Assembly (NCBI GenBank): GCA_030390025.1
Contig: CM059432.1
Span: 37,202,001-37,266,000 of the forward strand
DNA length: 64,000 bases
Direction: 5' to 3'
Source of the DNA: Squalus acanthias
Taxonomy: Eukaryota
Shown here piece by piece: positions 3,131 to 56,739 of this stretch. The position numbers and the translations under genes are program-made. The first letter of the stretch is position 1; each line of letters starts with the position of its first letter. The notes beneath the pieces were generated by a model that ran no database searches, was not told where the DNA came from, and worked only from the letters and a program-made list of their open reading frames with translations.

Positions 3131-3440
3131 TTTAATCCCCACAGTACACATATCCCACCCTACCCCCGTAACCCCACGTATTTAATTCCCCCTAACATAT
3201 CCCATCCTATCCCCATGACCCCACATATTTAATCCCCCCTAACACTAAGGGTCAATTTATCATAGCCAAATCAACCTAACCCACACATTTTTGGACTGTG
3301 GGAGGAAACCGGAGCACCCGGAGGAAACCCACGCAGACACGGGGAGAATGTGCAAACTCCACACAGACAGTCACCCGAGGTCAGATTCGAACCCGGGTCT
3401 CTGGCGCTGTGAGGCACCAGTGCTAACCACTATGCCAACA
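3130..3440 (-). mobile_element. HE1-type V-SINE (tRNA-derived)
   Basis: Reverse complement gives the head ggcatagtggttagcac...gggttcgaatc (A/B boxes) and the V-domain gtgtggagtttgcacattctccccgtgtctgcgtgggtttcctcc. Same family as 55756-56072. Confidence 0.9.
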
Positions 3441-6096: not shown

Positions 6097-6270
6097 GCAG
6101 TCCAAAGATGTGCAGGTTAGGTTGATTTGGCTATGATAAATTGACCCTTAGTGTTAGGGTGGATTAAATACGTGGGGTTACGGGGATAGGGTGGGATATG
6201 TGTCGGTGCAGGCTCGATGGGCCGAAATGGCCTTTATCTGCACTGTGGGGATTCTGTGTGATTCTGTGAT
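6097..6270 (+). mobile_element. HE1 SINE 3' half
   Basis: Near-identical to 55903-56072; ends in attctgtg repeats. Confidence 0.88.
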
Positions 6271-11756: not shown

Positions 11757-14700
11757 ATAGAATCATAGAAGATAGGAGCAGGAGTAGGCCATTCGGCCCC
11801 TCTAGCCTGCTCCGCCATTCAATGCGATCATGGCTGATCATCCAAATTCAGTACCCTGTCCCTGCTTTCTCCCCATATCCCTTGATCCCTTTAGCCTTAA
11901 GAAATATATCCAACTCCTTCTTGACTCTATTTAATGAATTGGCCTCTACTGCCTTCTGTGGCAGAGAATTCCACAGGTTCACCACTCTCTGGTTTAAGAA
12001 ATTCCTCCTCATTTCTGTCCTAAATGGCTTACCCCTTATCCTTAGACTGTGACCCCTGGTTCTGAACTCCCCGACCATCGGGAACATCCTTCCTGCATCT
12101 AGTTTGTCCTGTCCTGTCAGAATTTTATACGTTTCAATGAGATCCCCTCTCATTCTTCTAAACTCCACCGAGTATAAGCCCAATCGACCCAATCTCTCTC
12201 CATACGTCATTCCTGCCATCCCAGGTATCAGCCTTGTGAATCTTCGCTGAACTCCTTCCATGGCAAGAACATCCTTCCTCAGATAAGGCGACCAAAACTG
12301 CGCACACTACTCAAGGTGTGGTCTCACCAAGGCCCTGTACAACTGCAGCAAGACATCCTTGTTCCTGTACTCAAACCCTCGCTATGAAGGCCAACATACC
12401 ATTTGCCTTCTTAACCGCCTGCTGCACCTGCATGCTTACCTTCAGCGACTGGTGCACAAGGACACCCAGGTCTCGTTGCACTTTCCCTTCTCCCAATCTA
12501 TTGCCATTCAGATAATAATCTGCCTTTCTGTTTTTGCCACCAAAGTGGATAACCTCGCATTTATCCACGTTATATTGCATCTGCCACGCTTCTGCCCACT
12601 CACCCAACCTGTCCAAATCATCCTGGAGTTTCTCGGCATCCTCCTCGCAGCACACACGCCCACCCAGTTTTGTGTCGTCTGCAAACTTGGAGATATTACA
12701 TCTAGTTCCCTTATCTAGATCATTAATATATATTGTAAACAGCTGGGGTCCAAGGACCGATCCCTGCGGTACCCCACTAGTCACTGCCTGCCACTCGGAA
12801 AAAGACCCGTTTATTGCAACTCTTTGCTTTCTGTCTGCCAACCAGTTCTCTATCCAAGTCAATACCTTGCCCCCAATCCCATGTGCCTTAACTTTACATG
12901 CTAATCTCTTATGCGGGACCTTATCAAAAACCTTTTAGAAGTCCAAATACACCGCATCCACTGGTTCTCCCTTATCTATTTTACCAGTTACATCCTCAAA
13001 AAATTCCAGTAGATTAGTCAAGCATGATTTACCTTTTGTAAATCCATGTTGACTTTGTCCGATCCTGTCACTGTTTTTCAAGTGCTCAGCTATTACATCT
13101 TTTATAATGGACTCTAGCATTTTCCCCACTACCGATGTCCGTCTGTAATTCCTCGTTTTCTCTCTACCACCCTTTTTGAATAGTGGGGTAACATTAGCTA
13201 CCCTCCAATCCATGGGTACTGTTCCAGATTCCATTGAATGTTGGAAGATGACCAGCAATGCATCTACTATTTCTAGGGCCACTTCCTTAAGTACCCTAGG
13301 ATGTAAATTATCAGGCCCTGGGGATTTATCGGCCTTCAATTTCCCTAACACCATTTCCCTACAAATACTGATTTCTTTCAGTTCCTCCCTTTCATCAGAC
13401 CCTATGTTCCCCAACATCTCTGGGAGGTTATATGTGTCCTCCTTTGTGAAGACAGAACCAAAGTATGTATTTAATTGGTCTGCCATTTCTTTGTTCCCCA
13501 TTATCAATTCCCCTGATTCTGACTGCAAGGGACCTACGCTTGACTTCACCAATCTTTTTCTCTTCACATATCTATAGAAGCTTTTACAGGCAGTTTTTAT
13601 GTTCCCTGCAAGCTTACTCTCATAATCTATTTTCCCCCTCTTAGTTAATCCCTTTGTCCTCTTTTGTTGAATCCTAAACTGCTCCCAATCCTCAGGTTTG
13701 CTGCTTTTTCTGGCCAAATTATATGTCCTCTCCTTGGATCGTATGCTATCCCTAATTTCCCTTGTTAGCCACGGTTGAGTCACCTTTTTTGTTTTATTTT
13801 TATGCCAAACAGGGATGAACAAATTCTGTAGTTCATCCATGCGCTCTTTAAATGTTTGCCATTGCCTATCCACTGTCAACCCTTTAAGTAACGTTCCCCA
13901 ATCCATCCTAGCCAACTCGTGCCTCATACCATTGTAGTTTCCTTGATTTAAATTCAGGACCCTAGTCTGAGTCAACTACTTCACTCTCCATTTTAATGAA
14001 GAATTCGATCATATTATGATCGCTCCTCCCCAAGGGGCCTCGCACAACAAGATTGCTAATTAATCCTTTCTTGTTAGATAATACGCAGTCTAAGATGGCC
14101 TGATCTCTAGTTGGTTCCTCGACATATTGGTCCAGGAAACCATCCCGTATACACTCTAGGAATTCCTCCTCCACAGTATTGTTACTAATTTGGTGAGCCC
14201 AATCTATATGTAGATTAAAGTCACCCATGATAACTGGTGTGCCCTTATTGCACACGTCTCTAATTTCCCATTTAATGCCATCCCCAAACTCAGCATTACT
14301 GTTTGGGGGTCTGTATACAACTCCCACTAAAGCTTTCTGTCCCTTGGTATTTCTCAGCTCTACCCATACAGATTCCACATCATCAGAGCTAATATCCTTC
14401 CTTACTATTGTGTTAATCTCCTCTTTAACCAGCAATGCTACCCCACCTCTTCCTTTTTTCCTGTCCTTCCTGAATAGTGAATATCCCTGGATGTTGAATT
14501 CCCAGACTTGGTCATCCTGGAGCCATGTCTCTGTAGTCCCAATTATATCATATCCGTTTACATTTATTTGCGCAGCTAATTCATCCACCTTATTACGAAT
14601 GCTCCTCGCATTAAGACACAAAGCCTTCAGGCTTGATTTTTTAACACTTAGTCCTTTTAGAATTATTATTTACTGTGGCCCTGTTTGATTTACACCCTTG

Positions 14701-15451: not shown

Positions 15452-17745
15452 ACATTAATTAACAACATTGTTGTAAAGGGGCCTTTAGGGAAGAGTGACC
15501 ATAATATGATAGAATTTTATATTGAGTTTGAAAGTGATTTAGTTATATCCGAAACTAGGGTCTTGAATCTAAACAAAGCAAACTACGTAGGTATGAGGGG
15601 CGAGTTGGCTCGGGTAGATTTGGAAACTACATTAAAAGGTATGACGGTAGAGAAGCAATGGCTGGCATTTAAAGAATGAATACATAATTTACAACAAACA
15701 TACATTTCTTTTAAGGCACAAAAACACCACAGGAAAAGTGGCCCAACCGTGGCTAATGAGAAGTTAAAGATAGTATAGATCAAAGGAAGAGGCTTATAAT
15801 GTTGCCAAAAAGAGTACTAAGCCTGAGGATTGGGAGGATTTTAGAATTCAGCAAAGGAGGACGAAGAAATTGATCAAGAAAGGTAGAATAGAATACGTGA
15901 ATAAACTTGAGACATAAAAACAGACTGTAAAAGCTTTTATAGTTATGTAAAAAGGAAAAGATTAGTGAAAGTAAGTGTGGGTCCCTTACAGGCTGGGACA
16001 GGAGAAATTATAATGGGGAATAAGGAAATCGCAGAGAAATTAAACAAATACTTTGTCTTCACGGAAGATGCAAAAAACTTCCTGGAAATAGTGGAGAACC
16101 AAGGATCTAGTGAGAATGAGGAACTGAAAGAAATTAGTATTAGTAAAAATGTAGTACTGGAGAAATTAATTGGACTGAAAGCTGATAAATCCCCAGGGGC
16201 TGATGGCCTACATCCTCGGGCTTTGAAAGGGGTGGCTATAGAGATAGTGGATGTATTGATTGTCATTTTCCAAAATTCCATAGATTTTAGAACAGTTCCC
16301 ACAGATTGGAAGGTAGCAAATGTAACCCCATTATCTAAAAGGAGCGAGAGAGAAAACCGTGAACTGCAGACCAGTTAGCCTGACTTCAGTAGTTGGGAAA
16401 ATGCTAGAATCTATTATTAAGGACGTGGTAACAGGGCACTTAAAAAATAATAATAGGATTGGGCAGAGTCGACACAGATTTATGAAAGGAAAATCATGTT
16501 TCATGAATCTGTTAGATTTTTTTGAGGTTGTAAGTAGCAGAATAGATGAGGGGGAACCAGTGGACATGGTGTATTTGGATTTTCAGAAGGCATTCGATAA
16601 GGTGCCACACAAGAAGTTATTGAACAAAATTAGGGCTCATGGGATTGGGGATAATATACTAGCATGGATTAACGATTGGTTAACAGACAGAAAACAGAGT
16701 AGGAATAAACGGGTCATTTTCGGGTTGGCAGGCTGTAACTAGTGGGGTACCACAAGGATCAGTGCTTGGGCCTCAGCTATTCACAATCTATATCAATGAT
16801 TTGGATGAGGGGACCAAATGTAATATCGAGGTTTGCTGATGATACAAAGTTGGGTGGGAATGTAAGTTGTGAGGAGGATGCAAAGAGGCTTCAAGGGGAT
16901 ATCGACAGGTAAGTGAGTGAGCAAGAACATGGCAAATGGCATATCATGTGGAGAAATGTGAAGTTAACCACTTTGGTAGGAAAAATAGAAAAGCAGAGTT
17001 TTTTAAATGGTTAGAGATTGGGAAATGTTGGTGTTCAGAGGGACCTAGGTGTCCTTGTACACGAATCACTGAAAGTTAGCATGCGGGTACAGCAAGCAAT
17101 TAAGAAAGCAAATGGTATGTTGGCCTTTATTCCAAGAGGATTTGAGTATAAGAGTAAAGTCTTACTGCAATTATATAGGGCGCTGGCGAGACCACACCTG
17201 GAGTATTGTGTACAGTTTTGGTCTCCTTACCTAAGGAAGGATATATTGCCATTGAGGGAGTGGAACGAAGGTTCATCAGACTGATTCCTGGGATGGGGGG
17301 GGATTGTCCTATGAGGAGAGATTGAGTCGACTCGGCCTATATTCTCGAGAATTTAGAAGAATGAGAGGTGATCTCATTGAAACATACAGAATTCTTACAG
17401 GGCTTGACAGGGTAGATGCAGGGAGGATGTTTCCTCTGGCTGGGGAGTCTAGAACCAGGGGCCACAGTCTCAGAATAAGGGGTCGGCCATTTAGGACTGA
17501 GATGAGAAATTTCTTCACTGAGGGTGGTGAATCTTTGGAATTCTCTACCCCAGAGGGCTGTGGAGGCTCAGTTGTTGAATATATTCAAGACAGAGATCGA
17601 TAGATTTTTGGGAATCAAGGGATATGGGGATCGTACAGGAAAGTGGAGATGAGGTGGAAGATCAGCCATGATCATCTTGAATGGAGCAGCAGGCTTGAGG
17701 GGCCAAATAGCCTATTCCTGCTGCTATTTCTTATGTTCTTGTATG
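15452..17745 (+). mobile_element. 5'-truncated CR1 LINE (end of endonuclease, RT, 3' UTR)
   Basis: GPLGKSDHNMIEF, KSPGADGLHPR, VYLDFQKAFDKVPH, RPHLEYCVQFWSP; tail ends ttcttatgttcttgt. Confidence 0.93.
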
Positions 17746-17929: not shown

Positions 17930-20900
17930 GAATCATAGAATAGAATCATTAGAATGGTTACAGCACGGAAAAAGGCCGTTTGGCCCGACGAGCCCATTCC
18001 AACTTTCAGCTCGTCCCACTACCCTTCCCTTTCTCCATAGCCCTGCAAATTTTTTTCCTTCAGCTACTTACCCAACGCCCTTTTGAAAGATAAGCTTGAG
18101 TCTGCCTCCCCGACCTTTCAGGCAGAGCATTCCAGATCTTAACCATTCACTGTGTAAAAAAGCTTTTTCTTGCGTCGCATTTGGTTCTTTTGCCAATCAC
18201 CTTAAATCTGTGTCCTCTGGTTCTCAACCCTTCTGCCAATGGCAACAGTTTCTCTCTATCTACTCTGTCCAGATCCCTCATGATTTTTTGCTCCAAGGAG
18301 AACAACCCAAGCTTCTCCAGTCTATCAATGTAACTGAAGTCTCTCATTCCTGGAATCATTCTCGTAAGTCTTTTCTGCACCTTTTTTAAGGCCTTCACAT
18401 CCTTCCTAAAGTGTAGTGCCCAGAATTGAACACAGTACTCCAGTTGGGGCCAAACCAGTGTTTTATACGGGTTCATCATCATTTCCACACTTTTGTACTC
18501 TATAGCCTCTATTTATGAAGCCCAGGATCCTGTAAGGCTTTTTAAACCTGCTTTCTCAATCTGCCCTGCCACCTTCAATGATTTGTGCACACATATCCCC
18601 AGGTGTTTCTGTTCATGCACCCCCTTTAGGATTGTACCATTTAGTTTATATGTTGTCTCCTCATTATTTCTACCAAAATGTATCACTTTGCACTTTTCTG
18701 CGTTAAATTTCATCTGCCACATGTCCGCCCATCTCACCAGCCTGTCTTCCTGAAGTCTATCACTCTCCTCCTCACTGTTAACTATACTTCCAAGTTTTGT
18801 CATCTGCAGATTTTGAAATTGTGCCCTGTACACCCACGTTCAAGTCATTAATATATATCAAGAAAAGCAGTGGTCTTAGAACCGACACCTGGGGAACACC
18901 ACTGTATACCTTCCTCCAGTCTGAAAAACAACCGTTCAGAACTACTGTTTTATGTCACTTAAACAATTTCGTATCCATGCTTTTTTTTTAATATTCATTC
19001 ATGGGATGTGGGTGTCACTGGCAAGGCCAGCATTTATTGCCCATCCCTAATTGACCTGGAGAAGGTGGTGGTGAGCCGCTGCCTTGAACCGCTGCAGTCC
19101 GTGCGGTGAAGGTACTCCCACAGTGCTGTTAGGGAGTTCCAGGATTTTGACCCAGCGATGATGAAGGAACAGCGATATACTTCCAATTCAGGATGGTATG
19201 TGACTTGGAAGGGAACTTGGAGGTGGTGGTGTTCCCGTACGCCTGCTGTCCTTGTCTTCTAGGTGGTAGAGGTAGCGTGTTTGGGAGGTGCTGCCGAAGC
19301 AGCCTTGGCGAGTTGCTGCAGTGCATCTTGTAGATGGTGTACATTGCAGCCATGGTATGCTGGTGGTGGAGGGAGTGAATGTTTAAGGTGGTGAACAGGG
19401 TGCCAATCAAGCGGGCTGCTTTGTCTTGGATGGTGTTGAGCTTCTTGTGTTGTTGGAGCTGCACTCATCCAGGCAAGTGGAGAGTATTCCATCACACTCC
19501 TTACTTGTGCCTTGTAGATGGTGGAAAGGCTTTGTGGAGTCAGGAGGTGAGACGCTCGCCGCAGAATACCCAGCCTCTGACCTCTTGTTGCCACAGTATT
19601 TATGTGGCTGGTCCAGTTAAGTTTCTGGTCAATGGTGACGCCCAGGATGTTGATGGTGGTGGATTTGGTGATGGTAATGCCGTTGAATGTTAAGGGGTGG
19701 TGGTTAGACTCTCACTTATTGGAGATAGTCATTGCCCGGCACTTGTGTGGTGCGAATGTTACCTGTCACTTATCAGCCCAAGCCTGAATGTTGTCCAGGC
19801 GTTGTTGCATGCGGGCATAGAGTGCTTCATTATCTGAGTAGTTACGAATGGAACTGAACACTGCAGTCATCAGCGAACATCCCCATTTTTGACCTTATGA
19901 TAGAGGGAAGGTCATTGATGGAGCAGCTGAAGATGGTTGGGCCTAGGACACTGCCCTGAGGACCCCCTGCAGCAATGTCCTGGGACTGTGATGGTTGACC
20001 ACCAACTACCACAACCATCTTCCTTTGTGCTCGGTATGACTCCAGCCAGTGAAGAGTTTTCCACCTGATTCCCATTGTCTTCAGTTTTGCTCGCGCTCCT
20101 TGATGTCAAGGGCAGTCACTCTCACCTCACTTCTGGAATTCAGCTGTTTTGTCCATGTTTGGACCAAGGCTGTAATGAGGTCTGGAGCCGAGTGGTCCTG
20201 GCAGAACCCAAACTGGACATCAGTGAGCAGGTTATTAGTGAGTAAGTGTAGCTTGATAGCACTGTCGATGGCAACTTCCATCATTTTGCTGATGTTTGAG
20301 TCGACTGATGGGGCGGTAATTGGCCGGTTTGGATTTGTCCTGCTTTTTGTGGACAGGACATACCTGTGCAGTTTTCCACATTGTCAAATAGATGCCAGTG
20401 TTGTAGCTGTACTGGAACAGCTTGGCTAGAGGCGCGGCTAGTTCTGGAGCACAAGTCTTCAGCACAACAGCTGGGATGTTGTCGGGGCCCATAACCATTG
20501 CTGTTTCTGGTGCGCTCAGCCATTTCTTGATATCACGTGGAGTGAATCGAATTGGCTGAAGACTGGCTTCTGTGATAGTGGAGGCCGATATGGATCATCC
20601 ACTCAGCACTTCTGGCTGAAGATGGTTTCAAACGCTTCAGCCTTTTCTTTTGCACTCGCATGCTGGACTCCACCATCGTTGAGGATGGGGTTATTCATGG
20701 AGCCTCTTCCTCCCGTTAATTGTTTAATGGTCCACCACCATTCACGACTGGATGTGGCAGGACTGCAGAGCTTTGATCTGATCCATTGATTGTGGGATCG
20801 CTTAGCCCTGTCTATAGCATGCTGCTTCCGCTTTTTAGCATGCATGTAGTCCTGTATGGCAGCTTCCCCAGGTTGGTACCTCATTTTTAGGTACGCTTGG

Positions 20901-21733
20901 TGCTGCTCCTGGCATGCTCTTCTACACTCCTTATTGAACCAGAGTTGGTCACCTGGCTTGATTGTAATGGTAGAGTGAGGGATATGCCAGGCCATGAGGT
21001 TACAGATTGTGGTGGAATACAATTCTGCTGCTGCTGATGGCCCACAGCGCCTCATGGATGCCCAGTTTTGAGCTACTAGATCTGTTCTGAATCTATCCCA
21101 TTTAGCACAGTGGTAGTGCCACGCAACACGATGGAGGGTGTCCTCGGTGTGAAGACGGGACTTTGTCTCCACAATGACTGCGCGGTGGTCACTGCCACCA
21201 ATGCTGTCATGGACAGATGCATCTGCGACAGGTAGATTGGAGAGAACAAGGTCAAATAGGTTTTCCCTCGTGTTGGTTCTCTTACCACCTGTGGCAGGCC
21301 CAGACTGGCAGCTATGTCCTTCAGGACTCGGCCAGCTCGATCAGTAGTGGTGTTACCGAGCCACTCTTGGTGATGGACGTTGAAGTCCCCCACCCAGAGT
21401 ACATTCTGTGCTGTTGTTACCCTCCGTGCTTCTTCCAAGTGGTGTTCAACATGGAGGAGTACTGATTCATCAGCTGAGGGAGTGTGGTCTGTGGTAATCA
21501 GCAGGAGGTTTCCTTGCCCATGCTTGACCTGAAGCCATGAGACTTCATGGGGTCCGGAGTCAATGTTGAGGACTCCCAGGGCCACTCCTTATCGGCTACC
21601 ACTGTCCCTTTTATTCCATGGGCTTCAGCTTTGCTGGTAAGCCTATTATGTGGCACTTTGTTGAATGCCGTTTGGAAATCCATTTACACTACGTCAACCC
21701 TCTGTTACCTCATCAAAAAACTCGATCAAGTTG
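17930..21733 (-). mobile_element. CR1 LINE RT/3' portion, interrupted by a family B LINE at 18982-21590
   Basis: (gaatcata)n tail at ~17930; QLEYCVQFW and WQMKFNAEKC (18147-18833); resumes at ~21590 with MDFQTAFNKVPHNRL. Confidence 0.88.
18982..21590 (-). mobile_element. Family B CR1-clade LINE (endonuclease end, RT, 3' tail) nested in a CR1
   Basis: ORFs 21585-21076, 21172-20603, 20498-20235, 20075-19842 ([13 protein letters not shown]) and 19594-19259; 3' tail gggatgggcaataaatgctggccttgccag on the minus strand near 19000-19050. Confidence 0.92.
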
Positions 21734-24530: not shown

Positions 24531-25325
24531 GTTTCACGTCTGCGGCCGCAGAAACGCCTGTCTGCTCCCCTAACTATTGAATGCCCTACCACGATTGCTC
24601 TCCCACACTTTTTCCACCTCTTTTTCTCCGCCCTCTCCCCTGCCCCAGTACAGCTGAGCCACCCGTGGTGCCATGGACGTGTCTCTGGCTGTACTCCCCA
24701 GAGGAACCATCGCCCTCACCAGTACTTAGAACCGAATACTGGTTGGAGAGCGAGATGCACTCGGGCAATTCCTGCACTACCTACCTGGTCCTCTTCTGTC
24801 CGACGGTCACCCATTCCCTCTCTGCCTGCGCACTCCTTAGCTGTGCGGTGACCATCTCCTGAAACGTGATATCCACGAAGCTCTCAGCCTCCCGGATGCA
24901 CCGCAGTGATGCCAGCTGCTGCTCAAGCTCCGAAAACCGAGCTCGAGCTCCTCCAGCTGACGGCACCTCCTACACACGTGGTTGTCCAGGACATGGGAAG
25001 CGTCCTGGATTTCCCACATGGCACAGGATGTGCAATCCGTGGGACTGAGCTGCCCTGCCATGCCTCTATTTAATAGATGAACTAACTTACAGAAATAAAC
25101 TTAAGACCAAGAGTCTTAAAAGTCAGGCCTACCTTTATCTCCGGCTGCTTCTCTTGCTCTTAGTTCAAGTCTTTATTCACACGATTATCTAGCATAACTA
25201 GAGAAACTAATTAATATAATTATAGAGAGAATAAAACAGATACTCACTCACCAATCACCTTCCTGCAGTCCTGTGACGTCGCTCCTTGCTTTTGCTGTTC
25301 TTTTGGAATTCAGCGGCCCTGCGCA

Positions 25326-25750
25326 CTTTATCCTGTGCTGCAGCCTCTGCTGCCCATTCCTCTCCGGTCCGCTGTCCTCGGGCCCCGTGCTCTTTATCCT
25401 GTGCTGCAGCCTCTGCTGCCCATTCCTCTCCGGTCCGCTGTCCTCGGGCCCCGTGCTCTTTATCCTGTGATGCAGCCTCTGCTGCCCATTCCTCTCCGGT
25501 CCGCTGTCCTCGGGCCCCGTGCTCTTTATCCTGTGCTGCAGCCTCTGCTGCCCATTCCTCTCCGGTCCGCTGTCCTCGGGCCCCGTGCTCTTTATCCTGT
25601 GCTGCAGCCTCTGCTGCCCATTCCTCTCCGGTCCGCTGTCCTCGGGCCCCGTGCTCTTTATCCTGTGCTGCAGCCTCTGCTGCCCATTCCTCTCCATTCC
25701 ACTGTCCTCGGGCCCTGCGCACTTTATCCTGTGCTGTCGCCTCTGCTGCC
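25326..25750. repeat. 66-bp tandem repeat, about 6.4 copies, in the CR1 5'UTR
   Basis: Unit ctttatcctgtgctgcagcctctgctgcccattcctctccggtccgctgtcctcgggccccgtgct; 22-aa periodicity in the overlapping ORFs. Confidence 0.95.
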
Positions 25751-26061
25751 GATTTCTTTCAGGTCCGCTGGCTCTGTGCTGCTGCTGATTCCTTTCAGGT
25801 AATCCGCTATGCTCTTAAAGGGATAGGTAGAAAAACACTCTTTCACGTCACATTACCCCGCCTCTCTGCTGACTTTAGGTTGTCGTTTCTGGTTTGTGGG
25901 AGAGGACCCCGAAATATGAAGACTGTGCCCTTTTGAGTAATGTGTTCCTGGCCACTCTTCGCATCTACACCCTCCTTGTGTTCTCACTCCCTCTTTCTGC
26001 AAAATGAAGGCAAACCTCTTTCGGCAACTAGAGTCTCTTTTTTGTAATTGTGTAATTTGGA

Positions 26062-30384: not shown

Positions 30385-33040
30385 AAAAACCCAGAAAATG
30401 CTGGAAATACTCAGCAGGTCAGGCAGCATCTGTGGAGAGAGAAACAAAGTTAATGTTTCAGGTTGATGACCTTTCATCTGAACTGGAAGAGGTTAGAGAT
30501 GTAATGGTTTTAAGCAAGTACAGAGGCAGGGAAAAGGGGGAGAGGAAAAAAGAACAAAAGGGAAGGTCTGTGATGGGGTGGAAGGCAGGACAGGTTAAAT
30601 GACAAAAGGGATGATGGTGCAAGGCAAAAGGGGATGGTAATGGGGCAAGTCAAGAAACAAAAGATGGGTCTGGAGGTATAAATGGCAATTGCAGAATCAT
30701 TACCAACAGCTGTTGGGGAAAAAATGGTGCGAGTGGTTATGATTTGAAATTGTTGAATTCAGTATTGAGTTCAGAAGGCTGTGAAGTGCCTAATCGAAAG
30801 GTGAGGTGCTGTTCCTCGAGCTTGCGTTGAGCTTCATTGGAACAGTGTAGGAGGCTGAAGACAGAAGATTGGAGTGGAGCGGAGAATTAAAATGACAGGC
30901 AACCGGAAGATCAGGGTCACGCTTGCAGACTGAACGGAGGTGTTCTGCAAAGTGATCACCCAATCTGTGTTTGGTCTTCCCAATGTAGAGGAGACCACAT
31001 TTGCTTCTGTCTGAATTGAAAGTAGTACAAGTAAATCGCTGTTTGACATGGAAGGTGTGTTTGGGGCCCTGGGCAGGTGTTGCATCTCCTGTGCTTGCAC
31101 GGGAAGATGTCATGGAAAGGGGAGGGGGTGTTGGGTGTTAAGATTGGACCAGGGTGTTGTGGAGGGAACAGTCCCTTCGAAGGTTAAAAAGGATGGGGAA
31201 GATGTGGAAAGGGGAGGGGAAGGCGTGTTTGGTGGCAGCATCACGCGGGAGGTAGTGGAAATGGCGGCGGATGATCCGTTGCATGTGGAAGCTGGTTGAA
31301 GGTGAAGACGAGGGCAACCATATAATGGTTGTGCAAGTGCGGGAAATGGGACGGACATGGTCGAGGGCCCTGTCAACCATGGTGGAGGGGAATCCTTGGT
31401 TGAGGAACAAGGAAGACCTATCTGAAGCACTGGTATGGAAGGTGGTATTGTCAGAACAGATGCGACGGAGACGCAAAAACTGGGAGAATGGAACAGAGTT
31501 CTTGCTGGAAGCGGGATGGGAGGAAGTGCAGTCAAGGTAGCTGTTCGAGTCAGTGGGCTTCTAATGGATATTGGTCGATAGCCTATCCCCAGAAATTCAG
31601 AAATGAAGATAGAGAAGTTGAGGAAGGCAAGAGTTGGAGATGGGCCATGTGAAGGCGAGGGAAGGGTGGAAATTGGAAGCAAAGTTGATTAAATTTTCCA
31701 GTTTGGTGCAAGAGCAGGGAACGGCACTGATAGTCATCAATGTACCGGAAAAAGAGGTGAACATCAATGTACCGGAAAAAGAGGTGAGGACGGGGACCTG
31801 AGTAGGACTGGAACAAAGCATGTTCCACATGTACCATGCAAAGGCAGGCATAGATAGGACCCATTTGGGTTCCCACAGCAGCACCTACTACTTGGAAGGA
31901 GTGAGTGGAGTCAAAGGTGAAGTTGTTCAATGTGAGAACCAGTTCAGCCAGGCGGAGAAGGCTGTTGGTGGATGAAGACTGGTTGGGCCCCTGTTCAAGG
32001 AAGAAACGGAGGGCCCTCATGTCGTCCTGGTGGGGGATGGAGGTGTAAAGGGATTTGATGTCCGTGGTGGGAAGGGGACAGCTAGGGCTGGGAAACTGTT
32101 TAAGAGGCAGAGGGCATCGGAGAAGTCGTGAATATCGGTAGAGACTGGACAAGGGGAGAAAAAAATAATCGAGATGGGAAGAAATCAGTTCCATGAGGCA
32201 GTAACAGGCTGAAATGATGGGTCTACCCGGGCAGTCCTGTTTGTGGATCTTGGGAAGGAGGTAGAAGTGGGCTGTGGGTGGTTGGGGGACTACGTGGTTG
32301 GAGGCCATGGAGGGAAGATCTCCAGAGGAGATGAGGTCAATGACAGTCTGGGAAATGATGGCTTGATGTTCGGTGGTGGGGTCATGGTTCAGGGGGAGGT
32401 AGGAGGAGGTGTCAGTTGGCGTTCAGCCTCCAGAAGGTAGAGGTCGGTTTGCCCAACAACAGCGCCACCCATGTCAGCAGGTTTCATGGCGAGGTTAGGG
32501 TTGACCTGAGAGAATGGAGTACTGCAAGTTCAGAACGAGGTAGTTTAAAGTGAGTGTACAGAGTACAAAAATTGAGGCGGTTGATGTCACGACGGCAGTT
32601 CCCAATGAAACTATCTAGAGACGGCAAGAGACCAGAGGGAGGGATCCAGGTGCAACGAGAATTCTGAAGACGAGAGAAAGGATCTGCTGTGCGGGGGGGA
32701 GATTCTTGGCCAAAGAAGTGGACGCGGGGGCGAAGGCGACGGAAGAAGAGCTCAGCATCATGCCGAGCTTGAAATTCAATGAGGTGTTTCAGGTGTAAGG
32801 GGATGAAGCTGAGGCCTTTGCTGGGTACTAATTGTTCGGGGCAGAGAGGGGAAGGTCAGAGGGGAATAGTGAAAACTCAGCAAAGGGTGAGATTAGTAGG
32901 AGGGATGGGGTCAGAGGAAAGCGAAGGGGAAGAAGGATCCGGAGGGGTGTTGGTATCCAAGAATCGTTGAAGCTTGCGATCCTTGACACCTGAAAGTAAG
33001 AAACGTTTTTTGTGAAAGCGAGTTTTGGCAGATACCTGAT
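30385..33040 (-). mobile_element. Penelope-like element (RT plus GIY-YIG endonuclease), frameshifted, with 3' pLTR
   Basis: FYLLPKIHKQDCPGRPIIS, DIKSLYTSIPH, GAAVGTQMGPIYACL and RYIDD (31583-32308); GIY-YIG CGLLYIGKTKHRLGDHFAEH...PVACHFN (30790-31113); decayed hammerhead motif cagatgaaaggtcatcaacctgaaac on the minus strand at ~30455-30482. Confidence 0.92.
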
Positions 33041-37139: not shown

Positions 37140-38860
37140 TCTCACAGTGCTGTTAGGGAGGGAGTGAATGTTTAAGGTGGTGGCTGAGGTGCCAATCAAG
37201 CGGGCTGCTTTGTCCTGGATGGTGTCGAGCTTCAAGTGTTACAGCTGCACTCATCCAGGCAAGTGGAGAGTATTCCATCACACTCCTTACTTGTGCCTTG
37301 TAGATGGTGGAAAGGCTTTGGGGAGTCAGGAGGTGAGACACTTGCCGCAGAATACCTAGCCTCTGACCTGCTCTTGTTGCCACAGTGTTTATGTGGCTGG
37401 TCCAGTTAAGTTTCTGGTCAATGGTGACGCCCAGGATGTTGATGGTGGGGGATTCGGCGATGGTAATGCCGTTGAATGTCGAGGGGCAGTGGTTAGACTT
37501 CTCGCTTGTTGGAGATAATCATTGCCTGGCATTTGTGTGGCGCGAATGTTACTTGCCACTTATTAGCCCCAGCCTGGATGTCATCCAGGTCTTGCTGCAT
37601 GCGGGCATGGACTGCTTCATTATCTGAGGAGTTGTGAATGGCACGGAACACTGCAGTCATCAGCGAACATCCCCATTTCTGACCTTATGTTGGAGGGAAG
37701 GTCATTGATGAAGCAGCTGAAGATGGTTGGGCCTAGGACACTGCCCTGAGGAACTCCTGCAGCGATGTCCTGGGGCTGTGATGATTGACCTTCAACCACC
37801 TCATCCATCTTCCTTTGTGCTAGGTATGACTCCAGCCAGTGGAGACTTTTCCCCCCGATTCTGACTTCAGTTTTACTGGGGCTCCTTGATGCCACACTCG
37901 GTCAAATGCTGACTTGATGTGAAGGGCAGTCACTCTCACCTCACCTCTGGAATTCAGCTCCTTTGTCCATGTTTGGACCAAGGCTGTAATGAGGTTGGGA
38001 TCAGAGTGGTCTTGGCGGAACCCAAACTGGGCATCAGTGAGCAGGTTATTGGTGAGTAAGTGCCGCTTGATAGCACTGTCGATACACCTTCCATCACTTT
38101 GCTGCTGATTGAGAGTAGACTGATGGGGTGGTAATTGGCTGGATTGGATTTGTCCTGCTTTTTGTGGACAGGACATACCTGGGCAGTTTTCCACATTGTC
38201 GGATAGATGCCAGTGTCTGGAGCACAAGTCTTAAGCACAACAGCCAGGATGTTGTCAGGGCCTGTAGCCTTTTCTGTATCCAGTGCGCTCAGCCGTTTCT
38301 TGATATCCCGTGGAGTGAATTGAATTGGCTGAAGACTGGCTTCTGTGATGGTGGGGACCTCGTGGAGGCTGATACTGGCTGAATATGGTTACAAATGCTT
38401 AAGTGTTGTCTTTTGCTCTCGCATGCTGGGCTCCGCCATCATTGAGGACAGGGATATTCATGGAGCTTCCTCCTCCCGTTAGTTGTTTAATTGTCCACCA
38501 CCATTCACAACTGGATGTGGCGGGACTGCAGAGCTTTGATCTGATCCGTTGATTGTGGGATCGCTTAGCTCTGTCTATAGCATGCTGCTTCCGCTGTTTA
38601 GCATGCATGTAGTCCTGTGTTGCAGGTTGGCACCTCATTTTTAGGTATGCCTTGTGCTGCTCCTGGTATGCCCTTCTACACTCCTCATTGAACTAGAGTT
38701 GTTCCCCTGCCTTGATGGTAATGGTAGAGTGAGGGATATGCCGGGCCATGAGGTTACAGATTGTGTTGGTATACAATTCTGCTGCTGCTGATGGCCCACA
38801 GCGCCTCATGGATGCCCAGTTTCGAGCTGCTAGATCTGTTATGAATCTATCCCATTCTAC
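37140..38860 (-). mobile_element. Family B CR1-clade LINE RT fragment with internal deletions
   Basis: ORFs 38884-38693, 38638-38399, 38238-37954, 37895-37620 ([15 protein letters not shown]) and 37383-37153. Confidence 0.92.
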
Positions 38861-51639: not shown

Positions 51640-53605
51640 ACAGCCAGGAGCAGCACCAAGCGTTCCTAAAAAAAAAAAAAATGAGGTGCCAACCTGGGAA
51701 GCTGCAACACAGGACCACATGCATGCTAAAGAGCAGAAGCAGCATGCTATAATCAGCGGATCTGCTGTCCTGCCACATCCAGTCGTGAATGGTAGTGGAC
51801 AATTCAACAACTAATGGGAGGCAGAGGCTCCATGAATATCCCCATCCTCGGTGATGGCGGAGCCCAGCACGCAAGTGCAAAAGACAAGGCTGAAGTGTTT
51901 GCAACCATCTTCAGCCAGAAGTGCCGAGTGGATGATCCATATCGGCCTCCTCCTGAGGTCTCCAGCATCACAGAAGCCAGTCTTCAGCCAATTCGATTCA
52001 CTTCATGTGATATCAAGAAACAGCTGAGCGCACTGGATACAGCAAAGGCTATGGGCCCCGACACATCCCGGCTGTTGTGCTGAAGACTTGTACTCCAGAA
52101 CTAGCCGCACCTCTAGCCAAGCTGTTCCAGTACAGCTACAACACTGGCATCTATCCGACAATGTGGAAAACTGCCCAGGTATGTCCTGTCCACAAAAAGC
52201 AGAACAAATCCAATCCGACCAATTACCGCCCCATCAGTCTGCTCTCAATCATCAGCAAAGTGATGGAAGGTGTCATTGACAGTGCTATCAAGCGGCACTG
52301 ACTCACCAATAACCTGCTCACTGATTTCCCAGTTTAGATTCCGCCAAGACCACTCGGCTCCCGACCTCATTACAACCTTGGGTCAAACATGGACAAAGGA
52401 GCTGAATTCCAGAGGTGAGATGAGAGTGACTGCCCTAGACATCAAGGCAGCATTTGACAGTGTGGTGCAACAAGGAGCCCTAGTAAAACTGAAGTCAATG
52501 GGAATCCGGGGGCGGGGGGGGAATTCTCCACTGGCTGGAGTCATACCTAGCACAAAGGAAGATGGATGAGGTGGTTGAAGGTCAATCATCACAGCCCAGG
52601 ACATCGCTGCAGGAGTTCCTCAAGGCAGTGTCCTAGGCCCAACCATCTTTGCTGCTTCATCAATGACCTTCCCTCCAACATATGGTCAGAAATGGGGATG
52701 TTCGTTGATGACTGCACAGCGTTCCGTGCCATTCGCAACTCCTCAGATAATGAAGCAGTCCATGCCCGCATGCAACAAGACGTAGACGACGTTCAGGCTT
52801 GGGCTGATAAGTGGCAGGTAACATTCGCGCCACTGAAGTGCCAGGCAATGACTATCTTCCAACAAGCGAGAGTCTAACCACTGCCCCTTGACATTCAACG
52901 GCATTACCATTGCCGAATCCACCACCATTAACATCCTGGGGGTCACCATTGACCAGAAACTTAACTGGACCAACCACATAAATACTGTGGCAACAAGAGC
53001 AGGTCAGAGGCTAGGTATTCTGCGGCGAGTGTCTCACCACCTGACTCCCCAAAGCCTTTCCACCATCTACAAGGCACAAGTAAGGGGCTTGATGGAATAC
53101 TCTCCACTTGCCTGGATGAGTGCAGCTCCAACAACACTCAAGAAGCTCGATACCATCCAGGACAAAGCAGCCCGCTTGATTGGCACCCCATCCACCACCT
53201 TAAACATTCACTCCCTCCACCACCGGCGTACCGTGGCTGCAGTGTGTACCATCTACAAGATGCACTGCAACACCTTGCCAAGGCTTCTTTGGCAGCACCT
53301 CCCAAACCCGCAACCTCTTCCACCTAGAAGGACAAGGGCAGCAGGCGCGTGGGAACACCAGCACCTCCAAGTTCCCCTCCCAAGTCACACACCATCCTGA
53401 CTTAGAAGTACATCACTGATCTTTCATCGTCGCTGGGTCAAAATCCTGGAACTCCCTACCGACGAGCACTGTAGGAGTAACTTCACCACATGGACTGCAG
53501 CGGTTCAAGAAGGCGGCTCACCACCTTCTCAATGGCAATTAGGGATGGGCAATAAATGCTGGCCTTGCCAGCGACGCCCACATCCCATAAACAACTTTTT
53601 TTAAA
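51640..53605 (+). mobile_element. Family B CR1-clade LINE, 5'-truncated, RT plus complete 3' tail
   Basis: ORFs 51814-52083, 52077-52301 (NYRPISLLS), 52270-52569 (ALDIKAAFD), 52566-52877 (MFVDD) and 52888-53400; tail gggatgggcaataaatgctggccttgccagcgacgcccacatccc. Confidence 0.93.
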
Positions 53606-55530: not shown

Positions 55531-55755
55531 TTCATCTTTGAAAGAGACTCAATTAGTCCCACTCCCCTGCTCTTTCTCCATAGCCCTGCAAATTTTTCCT
55601 CTTCAAGTATTTATCCAATTCCATTTTGAAAGTTATTGAATCTGCTTCCACCACCCTTTCAAAAATGAGAAGTCGCACAACACCAGGTTATAGTCCAACA
55701 GTTTTATTTAAAATTACGAGCTTTCGGAGCGCTGCTCCTTCAGGTACAAGTACAG

Positions 55756-56072
55756 CAACACGGTGGCATAGTGGTTAGCACTGTTGCCTCACAGCGCCAG
55801 GGACCCGGGTTCGAATCCGGCCTCGGGTGACTGTCTGTGTGGAGTTTGCACATTCTCCCCGTGTCTGCGTGGGTTTCCTCCGGGTGCTCCGGTTTCCTCC
55901 CACAGTCCAAAGATGTGCGGGTTAGGTTGATTTGGCTATGATAAATTGACCCTTAGTGATAGGGGGGGATTAAATACGTGGGGTTACGGGGATAGGGTGG
56001 GATATGTGTCGGTGCAGGCTCGATGGGCCGAAATGGCCTTTATCTGCACTGTGGGGATTCTGTGATTCTGTG
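55756..56072 (+). mobile_element. Full-length HE1 V-SINE inserted in the left arm of the palindrome
   Basis: A box tggcatagtgg, B box ggttcgaatcc, V-domain and (attctgtg)2 tail; 8-bp TSD AAGTACAG at 55748-55755 and 56073-56080. Confidence 0.95.
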
Positions 56073-56588
56073 AAGTACAGTGAGGGAATACAAATCGGCA
56101 GTATATATACACAGAGAGCAATTTGTCTGCAGAGATACAATCTGTTAGGAAGGCATTACATCAAAGACACATCCGAGCACAGCCAAGACAATGAGGTGGG
56201 TCACAGGGGGTCCAACGTGTCAAATGTTGCCGTCTGCAGTTGAGCTTTTAACTTTTTTTGTGGGTTTTTTTGTGTTTTTTTTAACTGGAAAGACAGACAA
56301 CGATGTCGAGTCACGTTCTGTAGCGTGACATGAACCAGAGATGACGCTACAGAACGTGACTCGACATCGTTGTCTTTCCAGTTTTAAAAAAAGCAAACAA
56401 ACAAAAAAAGTTAAAAGCTCAACTGCAGATGGCAACATTTGACACGTTGGACCCCCTGTGACCCACCTCATTGTCTTGGCTGTGCTCTGATGTCTTTGAT
56501 GTAATGCCTTCCTAACAGATTGTATCTCTGCAGACAAATTGCTCTCTGTGTATATATACTGCCGATTTGTATTCCCTCACTGTACTTG

Positions 56589-56623
56589 TACCTGAAGAAG
56601 GAGCAGCGCTCCGAAAGCTCATA
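56589..56623 (+). ncRNA. Minimal type-I hammerhead ribozyme motif (Penelope pLTR type)
   Basis: UAC-CUGAAGA-A-GGAGC-AGC-GCUCC-GAAA-GCUC-AUA: conserved boxes, 5-bp stem II and a palindromic AGCU stem III. The antisense copy at ~55716-55747 lacks 3 nt of the core. Confidence 0.75.
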
Positions 56624-56739
56624 ATTTTAAATAAAACTGTTGGACTATAACCTGGTGTTGTGCGACTTCTCATTTTTGTCCACCCCAGTCCAACACCGGC
56701 ATCTCCGCATCATGACCACCCTTTCAGGCAGTGCAGAGT

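Follow-up and report, generated by a model that had tools for sequence, protein, structure and literature searches.

A truncated head-to-head copy of an abundant Penelope-like retrotransposon in the genome of Squalus acanthias

Penelope-like elements (PLEs) are, according to the available parts of four papers, typically inserted as inverted 5'-truncated copies with a tail of 30-40 bp on one side only (PMC8557442, PMC3846280, PMC2377424, PMC8969392), and the formation of the inverted arms and of the tails is called undefined in the excerpt at hand of one of them (PMC8557442). For the lizard Poseidon protein, the accessible sections of its description report cleavage and extension of both strands in vitro, with starts at two sites that mark the limits of the tail, and predict a dimeric form (PMC11167929). 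Minimal hammerhead motifs occur in metazoan PLEs, and for Schistosoma they are described as pairs on opposite strands, with 100-700 bp between them (Cervera and de la Pena 2014, PMC4209133, in part), while a preprint on animal non-LTR retrozymes deals, in its accessible sections, with short, non-coding, hammerhead-bearing elements of PLE origin which consist of tandem head-to-tail units and spread as such (bioRxiv 10.64898/2026.07.22.740005). The formation of siRNA from Penelope inverted repeats was reported in Drosophila (PMC3681739, excerpt).

The insertion described here lies in a stretch of 64,000 nucleotides of Squalus acanthias (assembly GCA_030390025.1, contig CM059432.1, positions 37,202,001 to 37,266,000), below referred to as the window, to which all coordinates relate. 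With a probability of about 0.93, it is a 5'-truncated, one-off insertion of an abundant autonomous family of Penelope-like retrotransposons. Its parts are listed in Table 1. A 12-bp target site duplication (TSD), ACCACCCTTTCA, encloses an inverted repeat with a left arm of 342 nt (both pieces minus the 8-bp SINE duplication), a spacer of 17 nt and a right arm of 335 nt, and the insertion measures 728 bp once the nested SINE is subtracted; the hairpin, the one-sided tail, the TSD, the SINE, the arm lengths and the total of approximately 730 bp given in a preliminary description of this DNA were all borne out. Between the arms there are 8 substitutions and 4 runs of gaps, with 5 of the substitutions and 1 gap located in the T/A tract, and their complementarity, complete over one stretch of 97 nt and 93% over another of 108 nt, is far above chance; in silico folding of the inner 515 nt without the SINE gave one long hairpin. 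The tract TATATATA and the AATAAA motif are present in both arms, as had been claimed, and 8 CpGs are found in the inner left arm and 9 in the right arm. The insertion splits an older repeat, whose other copy at 18013-18120 runs on as CTTTCAGGCAG, similarly to the window after the second TSD.

Table 1. Parts of the insertion and of its target, in window coordinates.
Feature	Position	Strand	Remarks
Older host repeat, insertion target	55556-55661		80% match to 18013-18120
Left TSD	55650-55661	+	Last 2 nt also fit the element
Tail-less inverted arm, outer piece	55660-55755	-	Hammerhead core with a 3-nt deletion
Nested tRNA-headed SINE, 317 nt	55756-56072	+	8-bp duplication AAGTACAG at 55748-55755 and 56073-56080
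Tail-less inverted arm, inner piece	56073-56326	-
"Loop"	56327-56342	-	Inverted last codons of the family ORF (RT and putative endonuclease), unbroken with the left arm
Junction base (G)	56343		Fits neither arm
Sense arm	56344-56678	+	ORF stop and 3' end (pLTR)
TATATATA tract	56551-56558	+	Putative promoter role
Minimal type-I hammerhead motif	56584-56624	+	CUGAAGA at 56592, 5-bp stem II, GAAA, predicted cut after 56620
36-nt tail	56679-56714	+	Stops at the ATG which opens the ORF in full-length copies
Right TSD	56715-56726	+	First 5 nt, ACCAC, also fit the continuation of the element

The SINE and its duplication are present in the left arm only. A tRNA-like head was recognized in it by a relaxed ARAGORN search, and the element, a putative V-SINE/HE1, is found twice more in the window, at 3146-3437 and 6098-6269, with 95-97% identity. 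The window insertion is judged to be recent because its arms diverge by only about 1% outside the T/A tract and the CpGs are retained; yet a SINE has inserted since then, and a sister subfamily, whose copies are 99-100% alike, is younger, so that the earlier label "young" needs this qualification. The absence of a credible ORF, also claimed before, holds by length (118 codons for the longest frame, 83 if counted from Met), but the minus strand retains the terminal codons LWFMSRYRT-stop of a much longer frame: in other loci the loop sequence, read on the opposite strand, continues into a long ORF ending with GLNRDLxFMSRYRT-stop. Therefore, although 17 nt do separate the arms, 16 of these supposed loop bases belong to the end of the ORF in inverted form, being the reverse complement of its last codons. 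The window copy itself is predicted to encode nothing and to be a dead end.

The parent family was traced by searching the genome (3.7 Gb), in which a 38-nt end marker gave 4,302 exact matches. A 698-aa stretch of the family ORF matched Pfam RVT_1 (E 1.7e-8), and the DKG and YIDD motifs are present both there and in an intact 892-aa ORF of the sister subfamily. An endonuclease-like motif, VVYLIRC...WYIGET, was read by eye at residues ~790-809 of the 892, while Pfam gave no GIY-YIG family and a PDB search with the intact 892-aa ORF gave no match. The family is presumably of the Poseidon type, a label which rests on the domain order and the C-terminal motif. In 12 of 30 loci the tail is continued by the start of the ORF. 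In a tandem array of the sister subfamily (L151-L152) the two compared units of 3,142 bp were identical and contained intact 892-aa ORFs, and this subfamily, with a pLTR 77-89% like the window arm, is probably very young and active; the array ends without a tail. The family thus combines an RT-encoding ORF, a pLTR from tandem copies, a tail-less inverted 5' copy with a short TSD and a minimal hammerhead, as in PLEs. An autonomous PLE carrying the window pLTR, the partner sought in the preliminary description, was found only as far as the sister subfamily with its intact ORFs, and a near-full-length but broken ORF is joined to a pLTR of the window type in locus L227; no intact full-length copy of the exact window subfamily was found in the searched genome. 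No further arm is present within 10 kb on either side of the window. The right window arm shares a 5-nt deletion with L003, L021 and L200 and has, in addition, a two-base marker absent from these; by such markers, the family lineages appear mosaic.

A second, frameshifted Penelope-like element is located in the window at 30871-32648 on the minus strand. It had already been recognized, near 30385, as unlike the partner of the insertion and attributed to another subfamily; the difference was confirmed, but with an amino-acid identity of 24-33% to the family protein over two long matches and no DNA match to the arm it is, by this comparison, a distant family rather than a subfamily. The window also contains a tandem repeat with a period of ~66 nt (25315-25770) and kilobase-long dispersed repeats with 74-85% identity, some of them inverted (18998-21102, 37148-38856 and 51643-53591; 11759-14064 and 15454-17739). 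A listing of 20 sequencing runs, with best shares of 0.55-0.58 in DNA runs and ~0.3 in runs presumed to be RNA, does not bear on structure, polymorphism or expression.

When set against canonical endonuclease-positive PLE insertions, as far as these are described in the available parts of the respective papers (Arkhipova 2013, PMC3846280; Craig 2021, PMC8557442; Schostak 2008, PMC2377424), the window copy has the same inverted tail-less arm, shorter by about one tail, the same one-sided tail and a similar TSD size, while its family has the same TATATATA and TCACT motifs in the pLTR and inverted repeats varying in size among copies; there is no difference in kind, the window copy being so truncated that, beyond the arm, it retains just 16 nt of the ORF. 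With Poseidon_Ac (PAc) of Anolis, in the portion of its description at hand (Frangieh 2024, PMC11167929), the family has in common an RT followed by endonuclease-like C-terminal motifs, a hammerhead in the pLTR, a tail bounded by two end zones ~36 nt apart and tandem full-length copies. The two differ in that the end of the tail coincides with the probable start codon in the shark family, in contrast to PAc start sites 111-118 nt inside the ORF, and in that TSD/element overlaps of 1-6 nt are common in the former, while for PAc a start at a site without homology was reported (PMC11167929, same sections).

The hammerhead motif was found in the right arm and in other arms of the family. In accordance with the metazoan PLE motifs in the excerpts of Cervera and de la Pena (PMC4209133), it has an extra base before stem II, a palindromic 2-nt loop 3 and a stem II that is highly variable, and the opposite orientation of the two window motifs is also as described there; in contrast to those motifs, one window core has suffered a deletion and the other carries an altered base beside the cut site. 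The base following the predicted cut in the right arm is an A, whereas 16 of 19 arms unselected at this site read CG. The left arm, with its 3-nt deletion, reads CUGAAGG, so that the CUGAAGA..GAAA motif previously ascribed to each arm exists in the right arm only. Rfam returned no hammerhead at E up to 5, its 18 matches all being below the gathering score and mostly belonging to hairpin miRNA models, and folding recovered stem II only, in keeping with the suggestion that minimal motifs require dimers (PMC4209133, excerpt). Two candidate traits were discarded: the A at the cut site, present in 29 of 29 tail arms, had been selected by the query and is a product of CpG decay, and two A-to-G changes common to both window arms, considered as a trace of ADAR, proved to be a lineage marker present in 201 of 2,337 arms. 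The tail-less arm of L200:193-533 has the same 3-nt deletion as that of the window, with both tail arms intact; either recurrent slippage or a common template may account for this coincidence.

The preliminary description had also proposed that the insertion belongs to a non-autonomous hairpin-RNA family, retrozyme- or MITE-like, mobilised by the Penelope RT. Each member would be copied into RNA and inserted anew as a whole. Such a family would consist of copies with the same ends and apex and with different TSDs, and short fold-backs are indeed very common: in a survey of the first 100 by position of the 4,302 marker matches, all 27 close marker pairs were head to head and none tandem, and 16 of them were mini fold-backs of ~200 bp with apexes at arm positions 235-270, making these the commonest paired insertion. 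The minis (L157-L198, within the first 45 Mb of contig C1) consist of two opposed hammerhead ends only. Some apexes, moreover, recur exactly: GACATGTC in L003 and L008, and GTAC at 239-242 in L051, L075, L077, L182 and L193. The GTAC apex is, however, carried on different hammerhead haplotypes and is therefore a hotspot and not a clone. The window apex is not among the recurring ones. Among 40 apexes scored out of 810 candidates the window alone matched throughout, and an exact short-apex pattern matched 10 loci in the whole genome, no two of them with the same junction and that of the window occurring once, which largely refutes the proposal and is the outcome named in advance as speaking against it; the closest look-alike belongs to a different subfamily with arms 75-84% similar, and the window flanks were absent from all 7 checked of the 9 other short-apex loci. 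Furthermore, animal retrozymes are described, in the sections of the preprint at hand, as tandem head-to-tail hammerhead monomers (bioRxiv 10.64898/2026.07.22.740005), in contrast to the single head-to-head window copy, and neither of its hammerheads is in the usual state of the family. A hairpin family is, thus, very improbable, while a single Penelope insertion cut to two head-to-head ends, the other reading offered previously, is supported. Long perfect hairpins can also arise from library or assembly errors, yet a fold-back chimera is a negligible prospect here: the arms differ by substitutions and gaps, a SINE with its own duplication sits in one of them, the TSD closes an interrupted older repeat, and the same architecture recurs across the genome.

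The position of the apex varies widely among the copies, from ~1.2 kb within the ORF to the interior of the hammerhead, which likewise speaks against a hairpin family. At 40 places selected by the tail, an adjacent inverted arm was present at 35 and absent at 5, and the inner ends lay anywhere between position -2080, within the ORF, and position +273, within the hammerhead; a fixed inner boundary at arm position 1, apparent at one stage, was an artefact of the query, with the arms running on into the ORF. Inner ends accumulate at 236-252, where 26 of the 48 arm ends lie; this pile-up is ~30 nt downstream of the TATATATA tract (position 208) and may mark the 5' end of the RNA, or else the GTAC palindromes located there may explain it equally well. 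Matches starting at arm positions 246-249 ahead of full-length ORFs were rejected as an indication of transcription start, this being the point where the sister subfamilies diverge from the query. Tail-less arms with no partner in the fetched stretch also exist (e.g., L087-L090), and L063, L064, L073, L203 and L206 are compound insertions of at least two fold-back units end to end, with the outer ends of L064 sharing one duplication.

As to how the window fold-back was formed, a route with two primers is given slightly better than even odds: both strands of a staggered cut would have served as primers for reverse transcription, and the two short products would have been joined head to head. 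The endonuclease of the element would cut the strands ~12 bp apart, with one 3' end priming at the tail end of the RNA and the other ~36 nt upstream, as at the two in vitro start sites of the lizard Poseidon element; both cDNAs would halt near the stop codon of the ORF and be joined there, while the SINE would enter the left arm and both hammerheads decay afterwards. The alternative, with the same identity of the element, is a single cDNA which folded back, primed itself and copied its own end, the 16-nt loop being its unpaired 3' end. This is rather unlikely, and the two-primer route is favored, because a tail-primed cDNA copied onto itself cannot yield an inverted arm that exceeds the other in length, as it does in the window and in 9 of the 24 usable positional pairs (27 minus 3 compound or ambiguous), in which the tail arm reached further in also in 9 cases and 6 were equal, while a cDNA that lacks the tail could not, on folding back, provide one. 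An initial excess of longer tail-less arms among 34 tail-selected pairs (20 versus 5, with 9 equal, p 0.004) was not replicated in the positional sample, with which it shares 2 loci, and was dismissed. The outer ends fall into two fixed zones, at arm positions 328-339 for the tail-less arms and 369-379 for the tail arms, the former being left unexplained by self-copying, and TSDs of 9-15 bp (median 12) were present in 27 of 29 loci examined, with 2 dropped whose duplications were broken by mismatches. Zero-loop apexes at palindromes of 4-6 nt (CATG, GATC, GATATC, GTAC) fit the pairing of two molecules better than a hairpin, although self-priming was proposed for palindromic junctions in the excerpt available (PMC3846280).

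The lineage markers point in both directions. In L227:340-3708 the arms are of different lineages at many markers inside one TSD, the tail arm holding the broken ORF, and in a comparison of 43 loci parsed of 53, plus 12 further informative pairs, the arms differed at 2 or more of three hammerhead markers in 6 of 24 minis versus 0-1 of 31 long copies (p 0.005-0.035); such two-lineage cases are at odds with self-copying. Both window arms, on the other hand, carry a marker of 9% frequency and the rare 5-nt deletion and are therefore derived from a single source lineage, an outcome expected just as much under self-copying, and a single lineage was found on both arms in 30-31 of the 31 long fold-backs. 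Two-lineage arms were absent from 18 of the 24 minis and from nearly all long copies, although random pairs differ at 1 or more markers in 86-88%; 21 of 22 pairs agreed, by eye, at the 9% marker, and the arm lengths are correlated (rho 0.58, 22 non-mini copies). All this counts against two primers, as does the lack of strand preference of the in vitro start sites in the sections of PMC11167929 at hand, given that the fold-backs here are nearly always one-tailed. The overlaps between TSD and element ends, with means of 1.6 nt on the left and 2.2 nt on the right in 27 loci, are suggestive only, being inflated by the TSD finder and lacking a computed null.

The window element is an ordinary truncated fold-back of a known kind, not a new one, and the literature already contains inverted arms without tails, the tails themselves, hammerheads in opposition and siRNA produced from repeats of this type. 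No paper on twin priming or on two-lineage arms in PLEs was found, which is weak evidence of absence with most subscription papers, including the PLE reviews of 2005 and 2006, outside the search. The single insertion matters little, as one dead copy among thousands. More tentatively, and with the odds falling a little short of even, twin priming peculiar to Penelope may operate throughout the family: a dimeric RT would prime on both nicked strands, at the tail end and ~36 nt upstream and sometimes on two RNAs, the cDNAs would be joined head to head at short palindromes, and the minis would result from run-off at the RNA 5' end ~30 nt past the TATA tract. If true, twin priming would account in a single step for the TSD, for the inverted arm and for the presence of a tail on one side only. 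The family is of somewhat greater interest than its window member, since it has young copies by the thousand in which both arms bear lineage markers, and for these self-copying and two-template priming predict different, countable outcomes.
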